Assembly (NCBI GenBank): GCA_042570545.1
Contig: JBHPGJ010000008.1
Location: 1 to 61,516 of the forward strand
Reading direction: 5' to 3'
DNA length: 61,516 nt
Source of the DNA: Patescibacteria group bacterium
GTDB lineage: Bacteria; Patescibacteriota; Patescibacteriia; JBHPGJ01
Both the position numbers and the translations under genes were made by a program. Positions within the stretch are counted from its first letter, which is position 1, and each line of letters opens with the position of its first letter. This document shows positions 25,556 to 25,764 of this stretch, piece after piece. A model generated the notes under the pieces. It searched no databases and had not been told where the DNA came from. It saw nothing but the letters and a program-made list of their open reading frames with translations.

Positions 25556-25589
25556 TATTTGACAACCATATAAAATCGGCTATTATTAC

Positions 25590-25764
25590 CCAGCTGAATC
25601 TTCCCTCTTCCTGTGATCAGGCTTTGTCGTAGTCGGTGACAGACTTCCTCAAATTGCGTCTCAGCTTAATAGCCGGGGATAGTTAATCACCATACGTTGA
25701 GTCTGGTAGCAAAAGAAGATTTAGTTACGGGCGCTGTCGACTGCAAGACAGCGCCTAATTATTT
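25590..25764 (+). ncRNA. Unidentified structured RNA candidate 1
   Basis: Promoter TTGACA-16-TATTAT (25559-25586). 12-bp closing stem AGCUGAAUCUUC/GAAGAUUUAGUU. Inner helices. 9-bp hairpin GGCGCUGUC/GACAGCGCC at the 3' end. Confidence 0.5.

Follow-up and report, generated by a model that had tools for sequence, protein, structure and literature searches.

The Rsa RNAs of Staphylococcus aureus, exemplified by RsaE/RoxS, are intergenic, trans-encoded small RNAs (sRNAs) that act independently of Hfq and use unpaired, C-rich UCCC motifs. In enterobacteria, MicL and DapZ represent the type I sRNAs associated with 3′ untranslated regions (3′-UTRs), which have a promoter of their own. We know of almost no work on the regulatory RNAs of the Patescibacteria (CPR). 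Here we describe a candidate of this general kind, termed RNA1, from a patescibacterial genome. It has the features of a generic stand-alone sRNA gene, namely its own promoter, an intrinsic terminator and no ORF, and we consider it on balance probable, judging from sequence signals and context, that positions 25559–25771 are a functional, stand-alone, small non-coding RNA gene with a product of about 165 nt. A transcription unit is the most economical reading because a promoter, a predicted start in register with a helix, a strand-specific fold, a terminator and the lack of an ORF are combined in one short stretch of DNA.

Results

Genomic setting of RNA1

The host genome (Patescibacteria/CPR) comprises about 1.0 Mb in 27 contigs, with 41% GC, about 92% coding DNA and 97% completeness, and is the sole representative of its order within the species collection. 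The window, by which we mean the whole stretch of 61 516 nucleotides that was analysed, is contig C8 of this genome. It contains the genes vanW and pepA, with hsp20 upstream and ruvB downstream of the pair, and the 695-bp gap between vanW and pepA holds three predicted RNA genes, as follows.

23714–25555, plus strand: vanW (VanW/PG_binding_4 gene), stop codon at 25553–25555
25559–25771, plus strand: candidate RNA1 unit
25772–25976, plus strand: candidate RNA2 unit (promoter, RNA and terminator), with a 12/12 promoter and a core fold of z = −4.6
25985–26180, minus strand: RNA3, a class-wide covarying RNA, with its core at 26005–26092, an outer helix at 25990–26108 and a conserved promoter at about 26150–26180
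26251–27750, plus strand: pepA

No terminator was found between the vanW stop codon and position 25729. The RNA1 core (25592–25727) has no ORF of at least 30 amino acids on either strand, and hence none of that size that could serve as the small ORF of a type I toxin–antitoxin antisense RNA; the nearest ORFs on the minus strand lie at 25431–25565 and 25763–25891. The GC content is 44% for the core and 48.5% for the core with its terminator, compared with an intergenic median of 35% and a value of 24% for the spacer before pepA.

Promoter and predicted start of transcription

The sequence directly following vanW contains a near-consensus promoter, the elements of which are listed here.

25559–25586, plus strand: predicted sigma-70-type promoter, TTGACA-16-TATTAT, 11 of 12 consensus positions
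25559–25564, plus strand: −35 box TTGACA, beginning 3 nt past the vanW stop codon
25581–25586, plus strand: −10 box TATTAT, separated from the −35 box by a 16-nt spacer
25592–25593, plus strand: start at A25592 or G25593, predicted from the promoter geometry, 6–7 nt past the −10 box

Transcription is predicted to begin on the first base of the closing helix described below. Across the genome, sites matching the sigma-70 consensus at 11 or more of 12 positions number 49 in intergenic DNA, which makes up 7.6% of the genome, and 34 within genes, an intergenic enrichment of about 17-fold per base; the majority of the intergenic sites lie 7–100 nt upstream of a gene on the same strand. Because such sites are enriched between genes and mostly fall just 5′ of them, the organism employs this consensus and the 11/12 promoter of RNA1 is probably functional. 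Several further promoter–terminator units devoid of an ORF are present in the host genome.

The position of the promoter also bears on a reading in which the structure belongs to vanW, as a 3′-UTR or terminator module that stabilizes or terminates the vanW mRNA, the promoter-like site being secondary. The absence of a vanW terminator before 25729 speaks for such a module, and the loci of the relatives are built alike; however, an 11/12 promoter separates the vanW stop codon from the structure and is predicted to initiate precisely where the helix begins. At most of the other vanW loci in the class, a plain terminator follows the gene, or nothing does, and no structured tail of 170 nt was seen among them. 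We therefore judge a vanW 3′-UTR to be decidedly unlikely, and treat RNA1 below as a transcription unit in its own right.

Predicted fold

The predicted elements of the RNA1 fold are given in the following list.

25592–25603, plus strand: 5′ strand of the closing helix, AGCUGAAUCUUC, forming 12 pairs with 25715–25726
25715–25726, plus strand: 3′ strand of the closing helix, GAAGAUUUAGUU, from the sequence and the predicted folds
25602–25605, plus strand: UCCC bulge, among the small bulges of the rod
25604–25714, plus strand: rod interior, on which the MFE and centroid structures agree
25606–25609/25713–25716, 25612–25614/25709–25711 and 25616–25624/25699–25707, plus strand: outer helices of the rod (MFE/centroid)
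25628–25631/25693–25696, 25635–25639/25687–25691 and 25642–25650/25675–25684, plus strand: inner helices of the rod (MFE/centroid)
25651–25674, plus strand: apical region, AAAUUGCGUCUCAGCUUAAUAGCC, 24 nt, mostly unpaired in the MFE structure

An earlier note on this DNA, made from the sequence alone, had proposed the closing helix and pointed out that its G-U pairs work on the plus strand only. Both points are confirmed from the sequence: the two G-U pairs, 25593–25725 and 25596–25722, would become C-A mismatches in a transcript of the minus strand. The 136-nt core (25592–25727) has an MFE of −44.1 kcal/mol, corresponding to z-scores against shuffled sequences of −3.5 to −3.7 for the plus strand and −1.4 for the minus strand, and of −5.2 to −5.5 when the terminator is included, so that the comparison with shuffled controls, suggested in the same note, came out in favour of a structured RNA, though for the plus strand alone. 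As a genomic baseline, 152 windows of 136 nt were taken at random from this genome and folded; 3.3% of them reached z ≤ −3.0 and 1.3% reached z ≤ −3.7. Because 1–3% of random genomic windows fold equally well, the fold by itself is good yet not exceptional; it belongs to the top few percent and is no proof.

The note had also described a multi-stem interior. The segments on which that description was built, CAGA-CUUC-CUCAA (25640–25652) and UUGAG-UCUG (25697–25705), are indeed present, and the fold drawn from them and from GUCUC-GCU-UAAU-AGC-GGGAU is possible, but it is not the favoured one: the best predicted structure is a single continuous, interrupted hairpin of about 48 pairs, and enforcing the multi-stem interior, which contends for the same 3′ strand, gave −31.4 rather than −44.7 kcal/mol, a cost of 13 kcal/mol. 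On these energy predictions RNA1 is best described as a rod rather than as a multi-branched RNA. Its internal loops are of 4 nt or fewer; the sole large unpaired region is the apical one, the largest accessible segment of the molecule, which may form the small GCU-UAAU-AGC hairpin proposed earlier.

Terminator and downstream border

A terminator-like hairpin follows, starting 2 nt past the last base of the closing helix.

25729–25756, plus strand: terminator-like hairpin of 10 pairs (seven of them G-C) with an 8-nt loop, present in every prediction
25730–25738 and 25747–25755, plus strand: GC-rich arms of the hairpin, GGCGCUGUC and GACAGCGCC
25757–25771, plus strand: U-rich tail, AAUUAUUUAAUUUAC, interrupted, as read from the sequence, and running straight into the −35 box of the RNA2 unit

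The 9-bp GC hairpin at 25730–25755, which had been noticed before, is thus borne out, and is extended by a G25729–U25756 pair. The U-tract behind it is broken (AAUUAUUUAAUUU) and, because of this interruption, termination of RNA1 may be leaky. The 12/12 promoter of the next unit (25772–25799) starts 16 nt past the terminator.

Comparison with known RNA families

Searching the window with the 4227 families of Rfam 15 at the gathering score gave nothing except six tRNAs, and a permissive search of 1 kb gave no match inside 25587–25762 at E ≤ 10. Riboswitches, T-boxes, ribozymes (hammerhead, twister, pistol, hatchet and HDV-like), Y RNA, raiA and OLE were all set aside on the strength of this search. 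The hint that RNA1 might be a self-cleaving ribozyme accordingly found no support, there being no match to a ribozyme family even at this threshold.

The lack of any riboswitch or T-box match also argues against RNA1 as a cis-regulatory leader (riboswitch, T-box or attenuator) controlling read-through into RNA2 and pepA. The closing helix does abut the terminator, as in many transcriptional OFF-switches, and the U-tract is weak, but the downstream unit, with its own 12/12 promoter 16 nt past the terminator, would be independent of read-through, and the next protein gene lies about 500 nt away, behind the convergent gene for RNA3. In addition, the only segment complementary to the 5′ strand of the terminator that was found by eye is the 5-nt GACAG at 25639–25643, which probably makes no credible antiterminator, and the rod has no multi-helix junction that could form a ligand pocket. 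We regard a leader as very improbable. The view that a stand-alone RNA is likelier, already taken in the earlier note, is upheld, as no ORF lies downstream in the same unit and the near-consensus promoter has its predicted start at the base of the helix.

We also considered whether RNA1 could be a divergent signal recognition particle (SRP) RNA, 6S RNA or self-cleaving ribozyme missed by the Rfam models. Some housekeeping RNAs of this genome are unaccounted for, in that RF00169, RF01854 and RF00013 have no match in it and ARAGORN found no tmRNA, and RNA1 is rod-shaped, as are SRP RNA and 6S RNA. The SRP RNA models RF00169 and RF01854, however, matched nothing in the host genome and nothing in 31 genomes of the class, even with the threshold relaxed to E ≤ 1, and motif scans for SRP domain IV (a 5′ AGG, a short helix, a GNRA-like loop and a 3′ AGCA; CAGG-GNRA-AGCA) gave no credible site. 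The Ffh/FtsY-type GTPase domain, PF00448, never scored above the cut-off in this genome or in 30 class relatives, and among 121 genomes of the phylum only five marginal matches, confined to the P-loop and scoring about 23–26 bits, reached it, the marginal P-loop matches as a whole scoring about 20–26 bits; the controls for this search were positive in 14 of 14 cases, and other universal genes were present. A scan for the motif DTAGR found it only in L31. That Parcubacteria have lost ffh and ffs has already been published (PMC4508563, PMC8080830). With no model match, no domain IV motif, no Ffh/FtsY and this published loss, an identity as SRP RNA is excluded. As for 6S RNA, the lack of a model match, the lack of a large central bubble and the restriction to one genome all speak against it, and confinement to a single genome would not be expected of any housekeeping RNA. 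For the ribozyme, the Rfam negative given above applies. A housekeeping RNA or ribozyme that the models overlooked is, in our view, scarcely credible, and we retain RNA1 as a candidate small RNA gene outside these families.

Searches for homologues

No paralogue of RNA1 was found in its own genome by blastn, which returned only chance 13–20-mers, and blastn found no homologue in four syntenic relatives, or in phages and plasmids. These four relatives (L025–L028) are the nearest available; the same four contigs were retrieved through VanW, at 56–59% identity, and through PepA, at 55–61%, and no closer relative was found through either protein in a collection of 15 billion proteins. An exact 20-mer scan of metagenome contigs gave two chance matches in GC-rich coding DNA.

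A covariance model built from the single RNA1 sequence (R1), run with filters off, likewise found nothing in the relatives. A control model built in the same way from the RNA of L026 (R2) also missed L025 and L027 and, because it thereby missed true syntenic partners, the negative obtained with R1 is uninformative; it carries no weight, the method being blind at such divergence. Over 400 genomes of the class, R1 found only the window itself. On these searches, RNA1 is most likely a lineage-specific small RNA candidate, an orphan of a single genome.

Neighbouring RNAs and their counterparts in the relatives

The order hsp20-vanW-[RNA]-RNA3-pepA-ruvB is kept in all four relatives, with extra genes inserted in L028. 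Each relative has a single promoter–RNA–terminator unit at this place, as against RNA1 and RNA2 in the window, and the strongly conserved, minus-strand RNA3 follows. The unit behind vanW in L025, L026 and L027 consists of a roughly 130-nt RNA, whose closing helix covaries, and a terminator; the distance from the vanW stop codon to the −35 box of the unit is 1–3 nt in L026 and L027 and 46 nt in L025. Across the RNAs of the relatives, the covarying helices read CCGACC/GGUCGG, CCGGC/GUCGG, CCGGUUUU/AAAACCGG, CGGCUUU/AAAGCCG and CCGACU/AGUCGG. Alignments of the RNAs of the relatives with MAFFT, followed by RNAalifold, were too poor to give a family structure.

These loci suggest that RNA1 might be a diverged orthologue of the single RNA found behind vanW in L025–L027 (‘family A’), RNA2 then being of the L028 type (‘family B’). 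The position is the same, in that 1–3 nt separate the vanW stop from the −35 box in the window as in L026 and L027, and so are the layout and the size. Global alignment of RNA1 gave z = 3.6 with L025 and 2.7 with L027, matching the values of 2.7–3.2 that L025, L026 and L027 give among themselves, while RNA2 aligned best with L028b (z = 2.8). Against this, RNA1 and L026 gave z = −0.1, and the CCGRY/RYCGG closing helix, which covaries in all five other RNAs, is absent from RNA1, which has AGCUGAAUCUUC/GAAGAUUUAGUU, possibly with an additional CCC/GGG, in its place. RNA1 also lacks the second small hairpin and the single-stranded 3′ AGAC segment of the other RNAs, and the CGUAGU motif that it shares with them is paired in a different register. 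That R1 finds no relative adds nothing here, as the test is powerless, its control having failed as well. We hold orthology to be possible but rather less than probable. It concerns the identity of RNA1 and not its mechanism, and is compatible with a functional small RNA gene; RNA1 would then belong to a small, clade-restricted family and would be no orphan.

Within the window, RNA1 and RNA2 share a 16-nt promoter spacer, a core of about 135 nt and a terminator of 10 bp with an 8-nt loop; the unit lengths are 213 nt for RNA1 and about 206 nt for RNA2. This geometry suggests a tandem duplication, but the interior sequence is unsupportive (z = 0.8), and the tandem-duplicate relationship was rejected. 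The two interior alignments gave z = 0.8 and 2.0; the value for the whole unit, z = 2.9, is driven by the promoter and terminator.

A further reading is that RNA1 is transcribed but functionless, being either a tandem duplicate of the neighbouring sRNA unit that is decaying, or the product of a chance promoter next to a vanW terminator. Its occurrence in one genome only, the identical geometry of the two units, their whole-unit alignment score and the 1–3% of random windows that fold equally well can all be read in this way. Decay is harder to reconcile with interiors that do not align significantly, or with a promoter, helix and terminator that are all undamaged and precisely in register; the GC content of RNA1 is raised over that of spacer DNA, and a 1-Mb genome that is 92% coding is expected to tolerate little junk. 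We think a functionless transcript unlikely, and prefer a functional RNA1.

By eye, the RNA1 sequence GCUUUGUCGUAGUC...ACAGA resembles the complement of the conserved RNA3 sequence GGACACGACAAGC. The proposal that RNA1 is antisense to RNA3, or an inverted copy of it, was rejected, as the duplex energy of −19.8 kcal/mol has z = −0.3, the local alignment has p = 0.07–0.11 and shuffled sequences do equally well.

Discussion

Proposed mode of action

If RNA1 is a functional small RNA gene, the housekeeping sigma factor would direct RNA polymerase to start at A25592 or G25593, and the transcript would fold into the rod of about 48 pairs, with its first nucleotide buried in the closing helix. Transcription would end, perhaps leakily, at the hairpin 25729–25756, where transcripts reading through from vanW would also end, because vanW itself lacks a terminator. 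The gene would occupy a slot directly 3′ of the vanW stop codon in which all but one of the four nearest relatives likewise appear to have a fast-evolving RNA gene of the same layout. We infer that RNA1 is transcribed and stable, a buried 5′ end and a 3′ hairpin being expected of a long-lived RNA.

Such an RNA would most likely be a trans-acting regulator independent of Hfq and CsrA, for neither of which a motif search found a motif in the host genome. The 24-nt apical region and the C-rich UCCC bulge might pair with purine-rich ribosome-binding sites; alternatively, RNA1 might be a double-stranded ligand or substrate of a protein, RNase III being one example that the host genome encodes (in the window, at about 55869). 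A duplex scan of RNA1 against 942 translation-initiation regions, in which accessibility was ignored, gave a best energy of −37.9 and a top-10 mean of −34.4 kcal/mol, whereas six shuffled versions of RNA1 gave best energies of −34.2 to −39.4 and top-10 means of −31.7 to −34.4 kcal/mol, so that no mRNA target stands out beyond the shuffled controls among these start regions. The choice between pairing and protein binding is speculative, and we have no strong preference.

A broader version of the protein-binding idea would make RNA1, RNA2 and the post-vanW RNAs of the relatives a single fast-evolving, clade-restricted family of rod RNAs, selected on shape rather than sequence, acting together with RNA3 (for instance, as double-stranded decoys or substrates of one protein such as RNase III) and expanded to two copies in this genome. 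We would consider this improbable.

Significance

RNA1 is a plausible, if unremarkable, candidate for an orphan small RNA, and its kind is familiar; the verdict rests on intrinsic signals and on the context of the locus. The earlier note was largely correct, except for the multi-stem interior, and its reading of RNA1 as an independent RNA was reasonable. If RNA1 is real, a genome of about 1 Mb without motif-detectable Hfq or CsrA would still keep lineage-specific small RNA genes, three of them in 700 bp. Its value lies mainly in being a catalogue entry and a pointer to the locus, and by itself it opens no new question; RNA3 is the more important object here and merits more attention.

Comparison with known systems

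Like RNA1, the Rsa-type sRNAs have their own sigma-70/SigA-type promoter and a Rho-independent terminator, contain no ORF, are 100–200 nt long and are strongly folded, and the UCCC bulge and CU-rich arm of RNA1 could likewise pair with Shine–Dalgarno sequences. RNA1 differs from them in being far more base-paired, as a rod, and in having no homologues, no target above the shuffled controls and no named sRNA family in Rfam. The sRNAs of the MicL and DapZ type share with RNA1 a location directly 3′ of a co-oriented protein gene, a terminator common to both and a promoter of their own; in RNA1, however, the promoter lies just past the stop codon and not inside the coding sequence, no Hfq motif was found in the genome and there is no definable conserved 3′ seed. 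6S RNA (RF00013) is, like RNA1, rod-like, highly paired and stand-alone, with its 5′ and 3′ ends paired with each other, whereas RNA1 has no RF00013 match and no central bubble, a core of 136 nt as against about 180 nt, and is found in one genome only.

The final comparison is with RNA2 and its four syntenic counterparts. RNA1 differs from the RNA2 type in having neither the CCGRY/RYCGG helix nor the linker and second hairpin, and in being present in one genome rather than five; in sequence the similarity to these RNAs is marginal (z = 2.0–3.6). It nevertheless resembles these RNAs in its locus and strand, in its promoter–helix–terminator layout with the predicted 5′ end paired inside a helix directly next to the terminator, in its core size (120–136 nt in the group) and in the very fast evolution of its sequence.

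RNA3 is a covarying RNA family

The gap between vanW and pepA holds, on the strand opposite to the two other RNA genes found there, a third RNA gene, RNA3:

25985-26180 (core 26005-26092), minus strand: RNA3, a covarying RNA family

We found RNA3 also at the loci L002, L004-L008, L010-L017, L023, L025-L028 and L038-L049 of other genomes. It is a genuine RNA family with covariation: in an alignment of 15 sequences, compensatory changes occur in 18 of the 27 pairs, and a 10-nt 5' bulge, CGACAAGCAU, placed between a 9-bp helix and a 10-bp helix, is invariant. RNA3 has a conserved promoter of its own and a U-tail, its usual neighbour is vanW or hsp20, and both orientations are seen. 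When its covariance model was searched against 401 genomes of the phylum, 25 genomes of the same class each gave exactly one strong match (E 1e-7 to 1e-20), and the only matches outside the class were four, all weak. RNA3 has no match in Rfam. The family resembles a housekeeping RNA that is present in single copy throughout the class.

In some genomes of the class (L045 and L048), approximately 190 nt separate the core of RNA3 from the nearest consensus promoter upstream; a longer RNA of approximately 330 nt, with RNA3 as its 3' part, may therefore be made there. At L038, L039 and L041, a short promoter–hairpin–terminator unit (40-70 nt) separates vanW from a same-strand RNA3.

RNA2-type RNAs and the region after vanW

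RNA2 and the syntenic RNAs that follow vanW at the four nearest relatives share a promoter–helix–terminator layout:

window 25772-25976, plus strand: RNA2
L025, about 2740-2960: RNA2-type RNA
L026, about 5850-6030: RNA2-type RNA
L027, about 5860-6040: RNA2-type RNA
L028, about 6385-6540: RNA2-type RNA (L028b)

Weak similarity and the 5' sequence suggest that these five may be divisible into two groups. In L025, L026 and L027, the RNA begins with GCUCGCUCCGG / GCGAACUCCGG, and an AGAC segment is found close to its 3' end; RNA2 of the window and L028b start with UUCCGAC and have a UAAAU/AAUUU linker. The window genome alone has two promoter–RNA–terminator units at this place.

At L028 (GCA_043802545.1, 4852-7567), vanW is separated from the RNA2-type gene by a 78-amino acid ORF and ispG (GcpE), and RNA3 from pepA by a 181-amino acid ORF; the region after vanW tolerates insertions. 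In the window, the Rfam lysM-TM7 motif gave a weak, sub-threshold match at 26235-26374 (plus strand), overlapping the start of pepA. It scores 19 bits (E = 0.98), where the gathering score is 61.5, and is probably due to chance.

Other promoter units and housekeeping RNAs in the genome

Nine further near-consensus promoters were located on the contigs (C) of the genome:

C1 46632-46660, minus strand: near-consensus promoter
C2 292-320, plus strand: near-consensus promoter
C3 16735-16762, plus strand: near-consensus promoter
C11 28941-28969, minus strand: near-consensus promoter
C19 6308-6335, plus strand: near-consensus promoter
C4 14503, minus strand: near-consensus promoter
C6 36732, plus strand: near-consensus promoter
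C7 11235, plus strand: near-consensus promoter
C10 50338, minus strand: near-consensus promoter

Downstream of each lies either an ORF-less terminator unit (about 110-300 nt) or a leader of 330-650 nt and then a gene. Each is a candidate for a long leader or for the gene of another small RNA, RNase P or tmRNA. By eye, the unit at C2 292 seems to contain a 19-codon ORF after a strong AAGGAGG site.

An SmpB-like motif was observed on the minus strand of C2, near 34056, but none of the 27 contigs has a tmRNA gene that ARAGORN detects; the tmRNA is either divergent or permuted, or lies in an assembly gap. The 6S RNA model (RF00013) had no match in the genome. No genuine SRP54-type GTPase (Ffh or FtsY) was detected in this genome or in 121 genomes of the phylum, our own regular-expression search included, nor was SRP RNA detected anywhere in the sampled phylum. 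Because SRP is absent, RNA3 as the SRP RNA was ruled out. This absence is already known rather than new: reports on Parcubacteria and the CPR concur on the missing SRP54-type GTPase and SRP RNA (PMC4508563, PMC8080830).
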